A stretch of DNA of 64,000 bases from a virus (IMGVR_UViG_3300037851_000141:128001-192000), one strand, 5' to 3'. Counted from the first letter of the stretch, positions 37,497-47,527 are shown. Made by a program: numbers and translations. Notes: generated from the letters alone by a model not told the origin.

Positions 37497-38333
37497 ATGC
37501 CATCCAACGAAGCTACACTTAAATTGATTGCTGGCATTCGTGCTAAACACGTTGAACCACAATCATCTTCTACAGCTTGTCCAATGAAAGTAGAAAAACG
37601 AATAGAAGAGTTTGAATTAGAAAAGATATTTAATCAAATTCAGAAAGAAAGTCCTGTTGTAATTGATGATCATTGTCATGCTGTTCTAAATGATAGTTGT
37701 TGTCCTAAACCGCCGAATATGAAATCTGGAGACGATCTTTATATGCCAGTATGTAAAGAAAGTGCTGGTGTAATTTATCCTCCACCATATCAACCTGTGG
37801 ATGTGACCGTTGATCATAATCCACGAACAAGAGAATTCTATATAACTGATCTTAAAACTGGTCAAAAAACAACTATTACGGAATCTGAGTTTAGATTATT
37901 GCCAAAATATCGAAATATTGTTAATGTTGATGTTGGTAGTATGTTGTCAAAAGCAGCAAACGAATATGTTTCTGATCATATAGCAAGACTTAAAAAAGCA
38001 GCCCAAGAATATAAAGATTCGGTTGAAGATATTAAACCAATACAACCAAACGAAGACGGAACGTTTAATATAGGGCAATCTGTAAACATTGGTTCACTTA
38101 TTTGTTATCTCACCGGCTTTCACGTAGGTAATTGTGAACATAAAGAAGTATACGGAATAACAGAACTATATCAAAGAATAAATAAAAAGTTGACACCAGA
38201 CTATATTTTAAGAACTGTTTATGGTGATATTTCTAAACTAAAAATAGACATTGAAAACTTTGATAATGATGATATGTGGATAAAAATAAAAGAAAAGTTT
38301 GGTGAAAAAATAAAACTAAGGAATGTAGAATGA
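37497..38333 (+). CDS. Hypothetical protein
   Basis: Long ORF, no family recognised. Confidence 0.65.
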   Translation: MPSNEATLKLIAGIRAKHVEPQSSSTACPMKVEKRIEEFELEKIFNQIQKESPVVIDDHCHAVLNDSCCPKPPNMKSGDDLYMPVCKESAGVIYPPPYQPVDVTVDHNPRTREFYITDLKTGQKTTITESEFRLLPKYRNIVNVDVGSMLSKAANEYVSDHIARLKKAAQEYKDSVEDIKPIQPNEDGTFNIGQSVNIGSLICYLTGFHVGNCEHKEVYGITELYQRINKKLTPDYILRTVYGDISKLKIDIENFDNDDMWIKIKEKFGEKIKLRNVE

Positions 38334-39205
38334 ATCAAAATTATGTTTTATACGATTTTGACAACAATTTACAAAAAGTTCTTGATTCTGGTATGCCACT
38401 TAAAGATCGTACTGGCACCGGATGTAAATTTCTCCCAGGTATATTAAGCACAGTTGATATTTCACAAAGGATTCCTGTTCCAACTCGTAGAGCAACGGTT
38501 TGGAAGTCAATGCTTAAGGAATATTTATGGTTTATATCTGGTTCCCATAATATAAATGACCTTAATAAAATGGGATCTAAAGTTTGGGATTTTTGGAGAG
38601 ACGATAAATGGACAGAACAGAATGGGTTTGATGAAGGTTCTATTGGATATGGTTATGGATTCAATTTATGTCATTTTGGATCTGATATACATAATAAAGA
38701 AACTCCAGGGTTCAACCAACTGGATTATGTAATAAATGAACTTAAAAATAATAGAAACTCAAGGCGCATTCTTTTTATATTCTATAGACCAGATAAATCA
38801 GATTCTAAGTCAGTAAAATTGCCCCCTTGTCACGTTGTTTATCAATTTATTCCTGAACCAGACGCTACCGGGGAACTAAATCGTTTATCTTGTTGTGTGT
38901 TCCAGCGGTCATCAGATGCGTTTGTTGGAAACTTAAGTACAAATCTTCAAGGCGCAACCTTTTTAACTTATATGTTGTGTCAGCAAGTTAATATGATTCC
39001 AAGTAAACTTTATCATTTTTCTGCGCATTTTCACATTTATGATAACCATTTTGACTTTGTTAAGGAATATCTTGCTCGACCAGCCCCAAATTCTCCGATT
39101 CTTAAGTTAAATAAACGAGATTCTATTTACGATTATGTTGCCGATGATTTTGTGCTTGACGATTACAATCCTTTAGATAAAATGCGTTTGCCAATAGCAG
39201 TCTGA
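38330..39205 (+). CDS. thyA: Thymidylate synthase (ThyA-type)
   Basis: KDRTGTG, SRRIL, LPPCH, QRSSD..N, HIYDNH. Confidence 0.92.
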   Translation: MNQNYVLYDFDNNLQKVLDSGMPLKDRTGTGCKFLPGILSTVDISQRIPVPTRRATVWKSMLKEYLWFISGSHNINDLNKMGSKVWDFWRDDKWTEQNGFDEGSIGYGYGFNLCHFGSDIHNKETPGFNQLDYVINELKNNRNSRRILFIFYRPDKSDSKSVKLPPCHVVYQFIPEPDATGELNRLSCCVFQRSSDAFVGNLSTNLQGATFLTYMLCQQVNMIPSKLYHFSAHFHIYDNHFDFVKEYLARPAPNSPILKLNKRDSIYDYVADDFVLDDYNPLDKMRLPIAV

Positions 39206-40129: not shown

Positions 40130-40327
40130 ATGCCACTTGAAGAATATTTTTGTTTTGTTTGTGATAAAAATGGGTTATGGTATAAAATTCCCGTCAGAGT
40201 AAAAAATACATTTGATGAGTTTAGTGAAAACAATAACCCACTCATTAAAGAGTTTAGTAAATATCGGTCAATGCACCCGTGTAATTATATGTTTAATGAT
40301 ATATTCGTCCTAAAGGAATCAAAATGA
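40130..40327 (+). CDS. Hypothetical protein
   Basis: Coupled ORF. Confidence 0.5.
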   Translation: MPLEEYFCFVCDKNGLWYKIPVRVKNTFDEFSENNNPLIKEFSKYRSMHPCNYMFNDIFVLKESK

Positions 40328-41220
40328 AAAATATCCCCGTACTCCATGTATCAGGAAACTCATTAGCTGAAGCATATGAGAAATCACTTCTGGAACTCTA
40401 TCATAATGGCTGTCGGTTTAAGACCCAATATGATAAACCCGGTGATCCTGAATCTGTTGATGCTACTATGAATATTACGATAAATGATCCTGAAGCAGAT
40501 CCGATGATTCATAAAGCATTCCCTGGTGGATTCTCTGATCTTAGGGAATATGTTTATGAATTGATGGGTGTTAAAGATCATTGGGTAAAATTTCATGATG
40601 ATTTGAATGACACTCGTTGGGAATATACATATAGTGGTCGTATTCGTCATTGGGGTCGATTGAAGTATCGTGGTGTTGATAATTCTGTTAATTGGCTTGG
40701 TGAAAATATTGATCAAACCAAGATTGTTATTGATAAACTAAGCAAGCAGCCATTTACTCGTCAAGCACAGATGATTACTTGGGATCCTCGTTTTGACACT
40801 AATTGTTATGACCCAGCATGTTTACAATCTTTATGGTATCGTATTCTTGAAGATGATGGTGTATATTATCTCAACTGTAATGTTCGCTTCCGCAGCAATG
40901 ACGCTTGGGGTGCGAATTTTATGAATAGTTTTGGTTTTATTCAGTTCAATAAAGAGGTTATAGCTAAAGGTGTTGCTGAAAAAACTGGTAAAGTTGTTAA
41001 GCTTGGTCGTATGAATTGGCAGGCTGATTCATTCCACATTTACGGTAAAGATATTGCTGACTTTGAACGTCGTCTACTTGAAAGAGTTAAAACTACCTCT
41101 TTTGATGAACGTGTATATAACTTCCAAGATGAAGAAATACAAATGATGTACCATGAATGTGAGAACGAATTGCTTGCTAAGTTTAAGTCCGTAGAAGAAA
41201 CATTCAAGGAATCAAAATGA
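40324..41220 (+). CDS. Second, divergent thymidylate synthase/nucleotide hydroxymethylase-family protein
   Basis: YTYSGR, TRQAQMITW, DPACLQ catalytic Cys, FRSNDAWGANFMN, SFHIY. Confidence 0.85.
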   Translation: MKNIPVLHVSGNSLAEAYEKSLLELYHNGCRFKTQYDKPGDPESVDATMNITINDPEADPMIHKAFPGGFSDLREYVYELMGVKDHWVKFHDDLNDTRWEYTYSGRIRHWGRLKYRGVDNSVNWLGENIDQTKIVIDKLSKQPFTRQAQMITWDPRFDTNCYDPACLQSLWYRILEDDGVYYLNCNVRFRSNDAWGANFMNSFGFIQFNKEVIAKGVAEKTGKVVKLGRMNWQADSFHIYGKDIADFERRLLERVKTTSFDERVYNFQDEEIQMMYHECENELLAKFKSVEETFKESK

Positions 41221-41700: not shown

Positions 41701-42231
41701 ATGATTACTTCACTTATCGTTGCTATGACTCCAAAGGGTATTATAGGTCGAAACGGCAGAATACCTTGGAAGTCATCTGAAGATATGAAATATTTTAAGG
41801 AAACTACAATGGGGTTTCCTGTTATTATGGGTCGAAATACTTGGGATTCGTTAAGGATAAAGCCATTACAAGGTAGATATAACGTTGTAATTACCAGAAA
41901 CACAGCATTGGTTGGTAAAATTGTTGAAGGTGAGAACGGCCCCTGGTTTCATGATTCATTAGAAGATGTGTTGGAAAAGTTCAGAGAAATGGATACGCCA
42001 GAGGTTTTTATTATTGGTGGCGCTCAAATATATGATGAAGCTATATCCAAAGACATTGTTGACCAAATGTACATCAATATAATGAAAAAAGATGTTGAGG
42101 GCGATGCTTGGTTCCCATACATAGAAAAAACATTGTGGCAAATTGAAAAATCCGGCACAGAGTTCAATGATTTTGATGCTTACTTATATGTCAGAAATCC
42201 CGAGCCAGAAGAAATCAGTCCTATAATATAA
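41701..42231 (+). CDS. folA: Dihydrofolate reductase
   Basis: IGRNGRIPW..EDMKYFK, VIMGRNTW, PLQGRYNVVITR, IIGGAQIY, EGDAWFP. Confidence 0.95.
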   Translation: MITSLIVAMTPKGIIGRNGRIPWKSSEDMKYFKETTMGFPVIMGRNTWDSLRIKPLQGRYNVVITRNTALVGKIVEGENGPWFHDSLEDVLEKFREMDTPEVFIIGGAQIYDEAISKDIVDQMYINIMKKDVEGDAWFPYIEKTLWQIEKSGTEFNDFDAYLYVRNPEPEEISPII

Positions 42232-42268
42232 ATAAGGTTGATGACTGATACTACTCTGGTTGCTGGTT

Positions 42269-42598
42269 ATGTCTGGTAGCGGCAAAGAAGACCTTTATCA
42301 TTGCCCTATCTGTAATCGTCTCCATCGTAAAGAATTCATGACTATCCATCATTTGTTTCCTGCTCTCGGCGCTAAACCTAAACTTGAGCCAATAATTTAT
42401 ATATGTAGAACCTGTCACGAAGTTATACATTATTGCCATACAAACGCAGAACTAAGACTATATTGGAATACATACGATAAACTCATAAAATCTCCAAAGA
42501 TACAAAATCTACTTGAAATATATAAATATAAACCGGATAACTGTGTGTTCAAGTTGAAAAAACTCAAGAATACACTAAAATCATTACAAGTAGCATAA
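42269..42598 (+). CDS. Small HNH endonuclease-like protein
   Basis: CPICNR..TIHHLFP..ICRTCHEVIH. Confidence 0.75.
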   Translation: MSGSGKEDLYHCPICNRLHRKEFMTIHHLFPALGAKPKLEPIIYICRTCHEVIHYCHTNAELRLYWNTYDKLIKSPKIQNLLEIYKYKPDNCVFKLKKLKNTLKSLQVA

Positions 42599-42611
42599 AA
42601 AGGAATATAAA

Positions 42612-43196
42612 ATGGCTGATGATAAAAAAGAACCAGAATGGATGAGTTATAAAGATAAAATCCAATCTCTCCTAAAACGTGTAGAAAATGGCGAAGAAAT
42701 ATATAAAAAAGAGGAAGAAAATCCCCTACATCAAAAAATAAAAGCTGAAGGTGTTAAACCAGTCCTCGTCCAAATATTTACTGAAGGTATGATTGGCGAC
42801 TATACTATAACCGAAGAAGAAACTGAAGAATCCTTAAGAATACCCGATACTAACCTTTTTCGAGTAAAACTGTCATCCGGTGTTGAAGATCAGGCCAGCG
42901 ATTATTGGGCAGGTATATTAACAACACTTAAATCAAAATGGAAGGTTTATGATAATATTGATGGACTCGCTACCGTTCAATTTGGTACAACTGGAAGTCC
43001 ACACGAAAACCTTGCCCTGACTCTCGTTCGTGATGAAGATCGACATGATAAACTTGCTATATTGTTCCAATGGACTGATGCTGAAAAAACAACGTCAGAT
43101 GAAATAAAAGATATATTATCAAAAGTCGGTATGATTCCAGAAGATGGCTCAATAAAAGACCTTGATGATAAAGTTGTTATGGCTCCAATAAAATAA
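42612..43196 (+). CDS. Hypothetical protein (probably late)
   Basis: Long ORF with RBS. Confidence 0.65.
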   Translation: MADDKKEPEWMSYKDKIQSLLKRVENGEEIYKKEEENPLHQKIKAEGVKPVLVQIFTEGMIGDYTITEEETEESLRIPDTNLFRVKLSSGVEDQASDYWAGILTTLKSKWKVYDNIDGLATVQFGTTGSPHENLALTLVRDEDRHDKLAILFQWTDAEKTTSDEIKDILSKVGMIPEDGSIKDLDDKVVMAPIK

Positions 43197-43204
43197 TATA
43201 AATA
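43197..43204 (+). promoter_or_regulatory. T4-type late promoter TATAAATA (further copies at 42227, 43688, 44752, 47559, 49282)
   Basis: Exact octamer recurs in intergenic gaps before successive genes. Confidence 0.6.
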
Positions 43205-43209
43205 ATAAT

Positions 43210-43659
43210 ATGTCATTTAAGTCATTTCTAAACGAACAACTTTTATTTGAGGATACGTTTGAGGAAATTAAACGTTTGGGTGAACCAAGTCAAAGAACTT
43301 TTTTAGATATAATGAAACGGTCCATAAGTGCTAAGGCTCGTAACGCATTACAAATATATATCCTCGCTCTTATTATTGGTATTCCTAAAGAAAAACTGTT
43401 AGCAACATCAACACTTAATGACTCTCCAGAAATAAAAAATATGGTAACTGCTGCTTTAACTTCTCCAGCAGGAATGGGTTATATGAAAGATTTCGCTGAA
43501 CAAGTTAGAAAAATAAATGGAATAGATGATAACCAAATTCCTGACTTCACTAATCCTGAAGTTGTAAATCTAATAAAAACATTGTCTGATAAATATGGAC
43601 AATCCCTTGATATAGAAAATATTAAAGATAAGATCAAGGAACCAAAAGCGGCCGTATAA
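43210..43659 (+). CDS. Putative internal head protein
   Basis: N-terminus MSFKSFLNE resembles the T4 capsid-targeting sequence MKTYQEFIAE; late promoter upstream. Confidence 0.55.
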   Translation: MSFKSFLNEQLLFEDTFEEIKRLGEPSQRTFLDIMKRSISAKARNALQIYILALIIGIPKEKLLATSTLNDSPEIKNMVTAALTSPAGMGYMKDFAEQVRKINGIDDNQIPDFTNPEVVNLIKTLSDKYGQSLDIENIKDKIKEPKAAV

Positions 43660-43723
43660 AATAATGTGAAAATAATAGATGAACGAATATAAATAATAAC
43701 AGGAATAACATAGGAGTATCCAA

Positions 43724-44668
43724 ATGAGCAAAAAGCAACCACAATATTTTGATGCCAACAAGAGAGAAGAACTTTTTGAGAAGAATCAAACTGTTGAACG
43801 CTCACTTAAAACAAGTTGGAAGACTATGTTAACTGAAAGTGCTAAAAAAGGTATAAAGGCTCCAACAGGCGCAGACCTTATGAAGAAACAAGGTGTAAAA
43901 AAGATGGACGAGGAAGATGTTAAGCCTGTTGATGACATTGATACTCCTCCTGTTACCGATGCTCCAGTTGACGCTCCAGTTGACGCTCCCGCTCCAGTTG
44001 ATGGCGAAGTTCCTCCCGGTGTAGACCCTGCTGGCGAACCTGCTCCCGCTCCAATTTCAACCGACACTCCAGAAATGGATCCTGCCGCTGATGCTGCTGC
44101 TCCAACTGTAGATCCTGAAGCTGTTGAAGAACTTAAGAAATTTGCCGCATCTAAACTCACATCATTGCCTGCTAATGGCGGAACTGCTGAATCCTCTGTT
44201 GATGAAACTAAAGGTGTATTCAAGCAAGAGATTCAAGATGAACAAAGTGGTAAAACTTTCGTTGTATTAGCGTTCTCTAAAGATGTATATCCTGGTTTAC
44301 ATGATATGGCCAATGCTATCGAACCAATTGACCAAGCTGTTCCAGGTGCCGAAGTAGCTCCAACTGATGTTCCTCCTGTTGATGGTGCTGCTCCCGCTCC
44401 AACTGATATGCCTGCTACTGACGCCCCAGCCGGTGATATGCCTCCTGTTGATGGTGCCGCTCCAGTTGATGCTCCAGCCCCAACGCCAACAGAAGAACCA
44501 GCACCAGTTGAAGAACCAAAAGAAGATGCTGAAATAAAAGAATCTGATAAAGAAGAATGTGAAGTAGAAGATTGTGATGAAAAGAAACTTGAAGAAGCCC
44601 GCGACCCAACCGTTGTAGGTAAAAAAGATTGGAAGTTGTTCTTCGAATCTCGCTACTCAAAGAAATGA
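43724..44668 (+). CDS. Acidic Pro/Ala/Asp-rich protein, probable internal head or core protein
   Basis: PVDA repeats; LTE and LEE motifs; late promoter at 43688. Confidence 0.65.
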   Translation: MSKKQPQYFDANKREELFEKNQTVERSLKTSWKTMLTESAKKGIKAPTGADLMKKQGVKKMDEEDVKPVDDIDTPPVTDAPVDAPVDAPAPVDGEVPPGVDPAGEPAPAPISTDTPEMDPAADAAAPTVDPEAVEELKKFAASKLTSLPANGGTAESSVDETKGVFKQEIQDEQSGKTFVVLAFSKDVYPGLHDMANAIEPIDQAVPGAEVAPTDVPPVDGAAPAPTDMPATDAPAGDMPPVDGAAPVDAPAPTPTEEPAPVEEPKEDAEIKESDKEECEVEDCDEKKLEEARDPTVVGKKDWKLFFESRYSKK

Positions 44669-44693
44669 TTGCTCTTAAATAATAATATAAGTA

Positions 44694-44728
44694 AAGGGTT
44701 GGGCCAAAAGTCCAGCCCTTTATTTTTT
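44694..44728 (+). terminator. Intrinsic terminator
   Basis: AAGGGTTGGGC/GTCCAGCCCTT stem followed by TATTTTTT. Confidence 0.8.
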
Positions 44729-44780
44729 ATCTAATTTGTCAAGATAAAAAATATAAATACAATAGATTAGGAGTCTTACT

Positions 44781-45251
44781 ATGGATACCCCAGAAATTCA
44801 ACCAACCCCAGAAGCCAAAGTCGAATTAGATGAGGCAACACAAAAACGCATAGCTAAAGCTGAAGAACGTAGAACTGCTTTAGAAGATGAAATGAAACAA
44901 CTTGAAGAAGAAATCGGATATCTACAACAACTTGGCGAGAAAAAAGCTAAACTCGCTCAAGCAAGAGAACAATCCGCTCAACTTCGTGAAGAAATATCTC
45001 AATTAAAAGAAGCTAAAAAGAAACCAGAAGCCAAAGAAACCACAGAAGAAATACCAGAAGAAACTCCTGTAAATGATGAGCCAATGACTCTTAAAGGTCA
45101 TAAACCTGGAGATGCTGAAGAAGTCGAAACTGATAAAATTGAAGAAAAGAAAGCTAAACTCAATGAAGGCTTCCAACAATATCTTAAGAATCGTAAACCA
45201 TTAAACGAATCTCAAATTAAACCAATCGGCTACAGAGTATCAATGGGATGA
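44781..45251 (+). CDS. Coiled-coil acidic protein, probable head core protein
   Basis: Heptad-rich N-terminal half; LNEG and LNES motifs; late promoter at 44752. Confidence 0.65.
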   Translation: MDTPEIQPTPEAKVELDEATQKRIAKAEERRTALEDEMKQLEEEIGYLQQLGEKKAKLAQAREQSAQLREEISQLKEAKKKPEAKETTEEIPEETPVNDEPMTLKGHKPGDAEEVETDKIEEKKAKLNEGFQQYLKNRKPLNESQIKPIGYRVSMG

Positions 45252-45257
45252 TTCAAT

Positions 45258-46799
45258 ATGTTTCTTAAAAAAGCTTGGCGACAAATAAAAGAATCTAAAT
45301 CTTCAAACCCAGAACTTGAATCAGCATCAATCTGGGAACAAGGTCATGGTTTTGTTAAATTATCAGATATTAATGAAACTGTAGAAAATTTGTTGAAACA
45401 AGCTAAAGATGCTATCAAACATGAACAAGATCCATCAGCATCTATTCAAGAAATCAGACATGAACAAGATCGTATATCTAAATATGTCAGACACGCTCAA
45501 GAACATGGTAAAGATACATTTCAACATCAAGAACTCCTAAGAACTATATCAGATAAAATAGCAGAAGTAACACAAAAACAATTAAATGAAAAAGAAATAA
45601 TCAAAGGTGGACTTGCTGATCATAAATCACTCCAAGATATAGCTAAAAAACATAACGTCAGCTTAGAAGAAATCACTAAAGAATATGAAATGGGACTAAA
45701 AGTAGAAAAAGAACACACCAACAGTAAAGCAAAAGCAGCAGAAATAGCTAAGGATCATCTCATGGAAAACCCAAAATACTATTCTAAACTAAAAGCAGCA
45801 AAAATAGATGAGGCTGCTCCACCACAACTTGCTTTTGGTGATGATGATGAATTTATAATCGAACCAGATAAAGTACAAGAATATGTTGATGAAGTTTCTG
45901 ACCTCCAACCAAATGAAGCAGTTGAATATTTAAGTCAAATGAAATCTAAAATTGAAAAAAACCTACCAAGACTTGAAACAAAATTAGCTCATTATAAAGG
46001 AAGTTATAATCCGGCAAATCCATCAGAAGGTGGTCAATTCTCAACTCTTATTAATACACTTATGAAAGCGGGCAAAAATCAAAAAGGAGCAACATCAAGT
46101 ATCGGTCAAGTTCACGCACCATTCCAAACTATAGATGATGCCGTTAATGCGTTTTTTATGACTGATGACGAAAGACTTGAAAAATTTATAAACTATCTTC
46201 AAGTTATATCTCAAGCTAAAATTACTGCCACAGATCCAACACTTAAATACGGTTCCAAAGAAAAAGGTGGACAAACTCTCGGATCTACTGCCCGGCGTCG
46301 TCCAATGAAAAGTCAACTTACCGGAGAGTTTGATCGTAAACCAGAAGATACTGAAGCCAAATCAAAAGGAATGAAACTTGGTCCATTCCAAAGATTCGAT
46401 ATCATGCACGGACCACTTTTCGGACCTAATATCCAAGATGAAAATGCTGGTTGGCACGCATTATCTCAAATAAACGATAAACTCAATAAAGGTGAAAATA
46501 TATCTATCGATGAGTTCAATAATGCCGCTAAATATTTCAACGGCTCTATCGGTAAATTATTAAGATTCGTTCTACTTCATGATACATCTGTTATAAATGA
46601 ACCAATAAATAAAATGATAACAAAATACCATGATCAGGTAATTACAGTAAATCAAATAAAAGAAGATATTGCTGCCATTAATAAAGCTATACAAACAGTT
46701 GCCCAAAAACCTGAAGAACAATTTACTGAATCTACCATGCGTAAAGGAAGACTCAATTGGAATCAGTTTAAAAAGGATAACTACTCAAAAAAAGCGTAA
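45258..46799 (+). CDS. Probable virion internal protein containing a DUF5661-like segment; may be extended by -1 frameshift
   Basis: GLKVEKEHT..AAEIAKDHLMENPKYYSKL; repeated (I/L)xE motifs. Confidence 0.7.
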   Translation: MFLKKAWRQIKESKSSNPELESASIWEQGHGFVKLSDINETVENLLKQAKDAIKHEQDPSASIQEIRHEQDRISKYVRHAQEHGKDTFQHQELLRTISDKIAEVTQKQLNEKEIIKGGLADHKSLQDIAKKHNVSLEEITKEYEMGLKVEKEHTNSKAKAAEIAKDHLMENPKYYSKLKAAKIDEAAPPQLAFGDDDEFIIEPDKVQEYVDEVSDLQPNEAVEYLSQMKSKIEKNLPRLETKLAHYKGSYNPANPSEGGQFSTLINTLMKAGKNQKGATSSIGQVHAPFQTIDDAVNAFFMTDDERLEKFINYLQVISQAKITATDPTLKYGSKEKGGQTLGSTARRRPMKSQLTGEFDRKPEDTEAKSKGMKLGPFQRFDIMHGPLFGPNIQDENAGWHALSQINDKLNKGENISIDEFNNAAKYFNGSIGKLLRFVLLHDTSVINEPINKMITKYHDQVITVNQIKEDIAAINKAIQTVAQKPEEQFTESTMRKGRLNWNQFKKDNYSKKA

Positions 46800-46832
46800 A
46801 GCCCCTCTCTCCTAAAATAATAAAAGAGGGGC
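46787..46832 (+). other. Candidate programmed -1 ribosomal frameshift signal
   Basis: In-frame A AAA AAA, 7-nt spacer, 8-bp GCCCCTCT/AGAGGGGC hairpin; -1 frame is open to 47527. Confidence 0.6.
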
Positions 46833-47527
46833 AAGAACTTATTAATGAAGATCACCCAATTATTGATTCGTTCCAAAAAATAATATCTAAATTAAAAAAA
46901 TCAAACGAATCAAAAGATAAAAATGGTATCCACAATGCCGTTGCTGGATTAGCTTTTATTGATGACGCCCTAAGAAAAAAATCACAAGGCATCACAGGCA
47001 TAACTCAAGCATTCCTCACTGATTGGCATACAGCTACAAAAATATTAGATGAATGGCTGATGTTTATGGAACCAGAATATCAAGACGTATATAAAGACCT
47101 CCTTCAGAAAAATGGCGGAAACTTAGATAATATATTCAACACCAAAATGAAAAATATAGAACAAGAAACTGAAGCAAAATTAGATAAACTTATACAAACT
47201 ATCGGCTCACATGTTTCAGAAATACTTTGGGAAATGGTTAGAGTTGAAATTGAAGATGATCCAGATATGCTTAAAACTCTATTTAAAGGTATGATGAAAT
47301 CCTTTACGTTCGAGTTCAAAGATGTTCCAGATAGAATCAATTTACATTATCTAAAATCACAATCAGATCAACAAGCCGATTCTCAAGAACTAATCTATAA
47401 TCTCGGTGTTATGCTCGGACAAAAAATGGATGAAACTGAAATAAAAAATGCCTACGATAATCTGTTTGGACAAAATGATAAAAGTAAACAGTTTATAACA
47501 AAAATGGGCTTAGTAAAAGCAAGATGA
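46793..47527 (+). CDS. -1 frame extension (244 aa) including the 155-aa ORF at 47060
   Basis: 89 stop-free codons with no ATG/GTG/TTG precede the ATG at 47060. Confidence 0.55.
   Translation, partial: SVKPLSPKIIKEGQELINEDHPIIDSFQKIISKLKKSNESKDKNGIHNAVAGLAFIDDALRKKSQGITGITQAFLTDWHTATKILDEWLMFMEPEYQDVYKDLLQKNGGNLDNIFNTKMKNIEQETEAKLDKLIQTIGSHVSEILWEMVRVEIEDDPDMLKTLFKGMMKSFTFEFKDVPDRINLHYLKSQSDQQADSQELIYNLGVMLGQKMDETEIKNAYDNLFGQNDKSKQFITKMGLVKAR

Follow-up and report, generated by a model that had tools for sequence, protein, structure and literature searches.

Closest described systems

The -1 ribosomal frameshift signals of Escherichia coli dnaX and of the insertion sequences IS3 and IS911 combine an in-phase, A-rich heptamer of the form X_XXY_YYZ, a spacer of about 7 nucleotides (nt) and a 3' stem-loop, with a zero-frame stop codon just past the site. 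The same layout, including a candidate Shine-Dalgarno-like element about 10 nt on the 5' side, is found at a locus of two adjoining coding regions, termed geneA and geneB, in the DNA analysed in this study, a 64,000-nt stretch (hereafter the window, in which positions are counted) comprising bases 128001-192000 of one 331,849-base-pair (bp) virus contig (IMGVR_UViG_3300037851_000141) from a freshwater metagenome. The locus differs from dnaX and IS3/IS911 in that its heptamer ends in A and not G and its loop is 16 nt, and there is no sequence relationship. The dnaX shift shortens its product, whereas the shift proposed here, like that of IS3 OrfAB, would fuse two coding regions.

Phages provide further comparisons. 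In gene 10A/10B of phages T7 and T3, and in other phage structural proteins that frameshifting extends at the C-terminus, a slip near the end of a late gene gives a minor longer form containing the whole short form, as proposed here, but the extension at this locus is a 244-residue conserved protein that is free-standing in relatives and not a short tail. As in lambda gpG/gpGT, the downstream frame lacks a start and would be expressed solely as part of a fusion, in a small and constant proportion; unlike in lambda, there are no tail genes nearby and no match to a chaperone family. The position likewise does not fit a tail chaperone, whose gene stands immediately before that of the tape measure, the neighbours here being DHFR, thymidylate synthase, small unknown proteins and tRNAs.

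It is quite likely that geneA and geneB are joined in a fusion protein by one route or another, and a -1 ribosomal frameshift at a run of seven adenines (A7) is the most probable way in which geneB is made. We infer all three of the occurrence of this slip, its ribosomal nature and its efficiency. The mechanism is a known one; what is new is the gene pair and its contrast with relatives that encode both proteins separately.

The -1 reading frame is open, start-less and coding

The coding regions concerned are as follows.

45258-46799, + strand: geneA (P0002), zero-frame product of 513 amino acids (aa), beginning MFLKKAWRQIKE and ending ..NWNQFKKDNYSKKA
46793-47527, + strand: geneB as read after the slip (P0001), 244 codons
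46793-47065, + strand: coding part of the -1 frame that lacks a start codon, 91 codons lying 5' of the annotated ATG (47066), based on substitution pattern and homology

The last codons of geneA are TCA AAA AAA GCG TAA. Past its stops at 46769 and 46778, the -1 frame is stop-free from 46781 to 47527; its first ATG, GTG or TTG lies at 47060, 89 codons past the heptamer, which bears out the start-less run into the 47060 reading frame described in the initial annotation. Because the -1 stops at 46769 and 46778 close the 5' side and geneA itself stops at 46797, a switch from geneA into this frame must fall within 46781-46799, where the A7 run is the sole slippery sequence. A slip on the heptamer yields a 756-aa fusion with the junction ..YSKK-SVKPLSPK, reproducing the extension from 513 aa that had been proposed. 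Readthrough of the TAA was rejected, as frame 0 stops again six codons on, and an intron was rejected because the gap is too short.

For geneB, no canonical start codon was found at the usual distance from a Shine-Dalgarno sequence; of 148 genes scored in this phage, 121 have 5-8 nt between Shine-Dalgarno sequence and start, and the sites are of AGGAG type. The database gene call for geneB (P0003) is 153 aa long and starts only at ATG 47066, and is too short, since the start-less codons upstream of it are coding.

The coding character of the start-less stretch can be judged against L001, a Logan contig of 2775 bp that comes from a separate study's groundwater metagenome and carries both genes at approximately 91% identity. 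Thirteen of the 21 substitutions in 46851-47065 fall at third positions of the -1 frame; in this frame 12 changes are synonymous and 9 non-synonymous, compared to 2 and 19 in each of the other frames. This pattern resembles that of 47066-47527, and over the whole of 46851-47527 geneB shows 28 synonymous versus 14 non-synonymous changes. The ATG at 47060 is not kept in L001. Since the -1 frame is the only one in which most changes are synonymous, and stand-alone homologues align to it (see below), the start-less 89 codons are, judged from sequence comparison, coding and under purifying selection in the -1 frame.

The proposed frameshift signal

The elements that would direct the slip are the following.

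46787-46793, + strand: slippery heptamer A_AAA_AAA (codons TCA AAA AAA, in phase with geneA), read from the sequence and identical in L001
46794-46800, + strand: 7-nt spacer GCGTAAA, read from the sequence, holding the geneA stop TAA (46797-46799)
46801-46832, + strand: stem-loop in the minimum-energy structure, with an 8-bp stem (46801-46808 / 46825-46832; 6 G-C pairs) and a 16-nt loop
46773-46777, + strand: AAGGA, a Shine-Dalgarno-like pentamer 9 nt 5' of the heptamer, read from the sequence and identical in L001
46835-46873, + strand: second, weaker hairpin predicted by folding directly 3' of the first (z = -4.3 for the whole 121 nt)

The heptamer, 7-nt spacer and GC-rich 8-bp hairpin are thus all present where the initial annotation had placed them. 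The AAGGA is a possible 5' stimulator by analogy with dnaX. In addition, the loop sequence TAATAA (46818-46823) complements TTATTA (46839-46844), 7 nt past the stem, and was noted by eye as a candidate H-type pseudoknot of A-T pairs only.

The 45 nt 3' of the heptamer fold at -14.6 kcal/mol, a stability that 0.5% of the genome's 45-nt windows reach. Structure this stable stands right after the stop in 7 of 356 genes (2% of post-stop windows); the strongest of the seven are ordinary terminators with T-runs, and the geneA hairpin has no T-run. A role as a plus-strand terminator was rejected because no T-run follows the hairpin; a minus-strand terminator was also rejected, for although there is a T-rich tail on that strand, there is no minus-strand gene downstream. 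An in-phase run of at least seven A's within 40 nt of the stop occurs in 5 of 357 genes, and geneA is the only one of the five followed by a long -1 frame that has no ATG of its own. Because the in-phase near-stop A7, the start-less -1 frame and the post-stop hairpin are each rare here, the combination is far beyond chance; the heptamer alone is not.

Only one other gene, on the complementary strand at 284929-285438 (outside the window), has an in-phase A7 touching its stop (AAAGGAAAAAAATGA). Its A7 merely overlaps the ATG of the next gene, and this gene serves as a control, showing that genes coupled in the ordinary way in this phage start at an ATG.

If the signal acts as it does in dnaX and IS3, most ribosomes would stop at the TAA at 46797 and release the 513-aa protein ending in the motif W..F....YSKK. 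A minority would pause with two lysine tRNAs on A_AAA_AAA, as the hairpin 7 nt further on resists unwinding, and would then slip back by one base and translate the -1 frame across the hairpin as far as 47527, producing the 756-aa geneA-geneB fusion. With start codon, leader and motif all missing from geneB in this lineage, the slip would be its only, or main, route of expression and would set its amount as a small fraction of that of geneA.

The same fusion would result if RNA polymerase added one A to the A7 in some transcripts, since an extra A produces exactly the same frame change. Seven A's are, however, short for efficient polymerase slippage, known cases of which involve about 9 or more, and slippage during transcription leaves the conserved, well-placed hairpin without a function. 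Genome-wide, 44 A7 runs lie on the strand that is (+) in the window, close to the number expected from base composition, which also speaks against it. Transcriptional slippage is therefore improbable as the source of the fusion, although homopolymer slippage is used by Thermus dnaX and some IS elements (PMC5009743).

Another route would be bypassing as in T4 gene 60, in which the peptidyl-tRNA-Lys would leave AAA 46791-46793 and land on AAA 46814-46816, skipping the 5' arm of the hairpin. The matching AAA codons, the stop just past the take-off site, the hairpin at that place and the T4-like nature of the phage all recall gene 60. Nevertheless, the -1 frame runs through the bases in question without a stop, which makes a hop unnecessary; no nascent-peptide signal is evident, and a hop requires more special assumptions than a slip of one base. 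Bypassing is accordingly extremely improbable.

Conservation of the proposed signal

The A7 run was compared on contigs, in which rare variants would not show, of three samples from three studies. The A7, the stop and the hairpin are letter-for-letter equal in the source assembly (depth 21.8) and L001 (depth 7.8), and a 151-nt contig from the third study (X4; depth 2), which covers 46689-46832, shows no indel. The initial annotation had proposed to check heptamer and hairpin in relatives; L001 keeps both, with no variation in the stem, whereas the distant homologues have separate genes. An assembly error at the A7 is unlikely, because L001 keeps the A7, stop and hairpin and the X4 contig has no indel. 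Homopolymers are classic sites of sequencing error, and a true A8 would make the locus one continuous 756-aa gene; alternatively, geneB could be a recently disabled remnant. This pair of explanations, artefact or decay, is very unlikely: the agreement of the contigs of the three samples argues against the first, and the purifying selection on geneB since the split from L001 (the excess of synonymous changes given above) argues against the second.

Between the window and L001, third positions have changed at 21% in geneA and 14% in geneB, rates from which approximately five substitutions would be expected in 46764-46850, where there are none. This invariant block points to a constraint at the RNA level, with the reservation that divergence along the locus is uneven.

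Distant homologues encode geneB as a separate gene

When 1.8 billion cluster representatives were searched exhaustively with HMMER, only two real stand-alone relatives of geneB came up, P0006 (283 aa, E = 6e-29) and P0007 (300 aa, E = 3e-17). A further candidate, P0008, was rejected as a low-complexity repeat protein. No relatives beyond L001, P0006 and P0007 were found in phage records (DNA and protein), a word-indexed protein search, IMG/VR, JGI metagenomes, GTDB genomes, the ESM Atlas or cluster members, and the phage-record searches matched only the DUF5661 domain of geneA. The gene family is tiny, with one close and two distant relatives found, and comparative proof is limited to that extent.

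In L002, the contig of P0007, the gene preceding that of P0007 is homologous to the C-terminal portion of geneA and ends in ..DPLNEGFRNWNNFKKKNY, which holds the W..F....Y motif; its stop is followed by three bases and then by the ATG of the geneB homologue (MTTQKDPLLEGARNWNKFKKSEYS..). L002 carries two consecutive copies of the motif, one closing the geneA homologue and the other lying close to the geneB start. The start of P0006 (MKIDKDPIKEG..W..F...YS..) resembles that of geneB in L002, and the gene has an 11-nt overlap with the gene upstream. On the P0006 contig the gene order matches that of the window, with DHFR followed by unknown genes, a DUF5661 protein and geneB.

In the distant relatives geneB therefore stands alone as a gene, equipped with an ATG, a leader of 10 residues that ends (L/I)xE and a separate motif copy. 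In the window and L001, by contrast, geneB has no ATG, leader or motif of its own, and a single motif copy ends geneA, with geneB starting right after it in a different frame. The initial annotation had counted two independent genes in homologues as evidence against a frameshift; the distant homologues do show such an arrangement, but with an ATG, leader and motif that are absent from geneB here.

Despite this difference in organisation, the -1 fusion is colinear with both homologues from the motif through all of geneB, and the score of P0007 rises from 79 to 92 bits when the fusion replaces geneB alone. The alignments of P0006 and P0007 start at residue 8 of the -1 frame read. The segment KIIKEGQEL (46814-46840, just 5' of the ATT codon listed below) corresponds to RILNEMKKT and RILHEAHKL in the homologues, a match beaten by only 0.06% of the genome's stop-free 9-mers (fixed register; p ~6e-4), and this region is a helix in the P0006 model with a predicted local distance difference test (pLDDT) score of ~80.

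A 12-codon frame-0 open reading frame at 46845-46883 (MKITQLLIRSKK) ends in an A6 run plus TAA. L001 shares it apart from a single conservative change, and it probably arises from its overlap with the frame of geneB. The reading in which translation begins at its ATG (46845) and slips a second time on the A6 run was rejected by homology, because the geneB frame upstream of the A6 already matches the homologues (INEDHPIIDSF versus INEDVHAVVPSF).

The main rival explanation is that geneB is translated separately from a non-AUG start, either at ATT 46841 by coupling or, by reinitiation after the TAA, at ATA 46817 or 46820.

46841-46843, + strand: ATT codon in the geneB frame, 9-11 nt past GAGGGG; candidate start under this explanation

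That distant homologues express geneB as a gene of its own favours such a start, as does the layout, with the geneA stop 2 nt before the stem. Ribosomes finishing geneA would open the stem and unmask the GAGGGG in its 3' arm (46826-46831), and ATT 46841 is the only near-cognate codon with a purine-rich tract upstream. However, a gap of at least 9 nt is a minority spacing in this phage, and initiation at the ATT would remove residues 8-16, which are homologue-like and lie in the confident helix described above. The ATA codons, which are also in the geneB frame, would keep the homologue-matching residues but have no Shine-Dalgarno sequence. Both ATT and ATA are very weak start codons in the bacteria studied, and a separate start leaves the in-phase heptamer at the sole possible entry point unexplained. 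A non-AUG start thus appears unlikely.

Several observations weigh against the frameshift explanation itself. Besides the GAGGGG placed 9-11 nt before an in-frame ATT and the independence of the distant geneB, the heptamer ends in A and does not match the most shift-prone bacterial form, A_AAA_AAG, than which A_AAA_AAA is much less shift-prone in E. coli (PMC5009743). A loop of 16 nt is large for a stimulatory hairpin, and the stem is identical in L001, leaving no varying position that could show covariation. In addition, runs of at least seven A's inside genes are in the slippery phase in 29 of 69 cases, such that the heptamer alone is a weak signal, and an A-rich run is not very improbable given a ..SKK C-terminus. 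The -1 frameshift interpretation put forward in the initial annotation nevertheless finds support in a start-less stretch under selection, a sole slippery site at the entry point, a signal identical in L001 and a fusion colinear with homologues.

Genome setting

Nearly all genes are on the + strand. On the 5' side of the locus lie genes for a UvsX-like recombinase, a DnaB-like helicase, topoisomerase II, two thymidylate-synthase-like proteins and DHFR. The thymidylate-synthase-like genes are at 38330-39205 and 40324-41220, the second being far more divergent, and are followed by DHFR at 41701-42231. The region 42260-47527 is a run of small hydrophilic proteins that matched no known family, and an array of 16 tRNA genes adjoins it on the 3' side.

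A clean intrinsic terminator (44689-44725) stands 3' of the 43724 gene, and downstream of it TATAAATA (44752-44759) and a GGAG site precede the 44781 gene. There is no terminator between geneA and geneB, and the 44781 gene, geneA and geneB look like one transcription unit. The use of TATAAATA as proof of late expression was dropped, as it occurs in 30 and 50 copies on the two strands genome-wide compared to 41 expected per strand.

Protein features and a possible route into the capsid

Residues 127-180 of geneA match DUF5661 (PF18905) with 57.6 bits, against a Pfam gathering cut-off of 27; this is a domain of unknown function present in scattered phage proteins. The motif W..F....YSKK at the geneA C-terminus (46755-46799) also ends the neighbouring protein at 43724-44668 (44626-44668), and these are the only two proteins genome-wide with this C-terminus, in agreement with the shared ending pointed out in the initial annotation. 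The label of late virion protein given there finds no backing in the family searches, which name neither the geneA nor the geneB product.

GeneB is modelled as an all-helical protein. Fold searches with the P0006 model for a structural relative of geneB returned only generic helical repeats, an Rfam search returned nothing meaningful, and neither PHROG and Pfam nor the fold searches gave a match to a T4-type internal protein family.

The locus nevertheless shares features with the T4 internal proteins (IPI-III), which carry a capsid targeting sequence, namely a leader of 9-12 residues ending (L/I)xE and a gp21-type protease in the genome. Such leaders begin geneA (MFLKKAWRQIKE, 45258-45295) and the 43210 protein (MSFKSFLNE, 43210-43240), as well as the homologues P0006 (MKIDKDPIKE) and P0007 (MTTQKDPLLE, from ATG 373), and the gp21-type prohead protease is encoded at G000:C1:97297-97791 (PF03420, 97.6 bits). 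The T4 ip genes stand beside tRNA genes, as the cluster at this locus does. In contrast, the locus proteins have no sequence similarity to the T4 internal proteins, and the latter are not frameshifted. Because of the (L/I)xE leaders, the gp21-like protease and the position beside tRNA genes, these sequence features suggest that geneA, the 43210 protein and the geneB homologues may be T4-type internal proteins that are packaged and cleaved. Additionally, an (L/F)xE site precedes every motif copy (FTE in the window, LNE in L001, PLNE in L002 and LEE in the 43724 protein).

It is possible, though this is a tentative proposal, that the frameshift is a hitch-hiking device by which a leaderless geneB enters the prohead on geneA and is then freed, together with the motif, by the protease. 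In the relatives, geneB would enter the prohead by its own 10-residue, T4-style leader. Having lost its start, leader and motif in this lineage, geneB would instead ride on the leader of geneA as a frameshift fusion, and the gp21-like protease would cut at the (L/F)xE before the motif, producing a mature protein of motif plus geneB as in the relatives.

Implications

Gene finders will mis-annotate this locus, as the deposited call misses approximately 90 conserved codons. If the slip is real, it is a -1 frameshift outside the tail-chaperone and capsid genes in which phages usually employ one, and the contrast with relatives is that of a start-less gene rescued by recoding. The cassette of heptamer, 7-nt spacer and hairpin, which comes from a giant phage that has not been cultivated, is simple and can be put to the test. 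Should capsid delivery prove true, recoding would be coupled to proteolytic maturation in this phage and would fix the copy number of a packaged protein.

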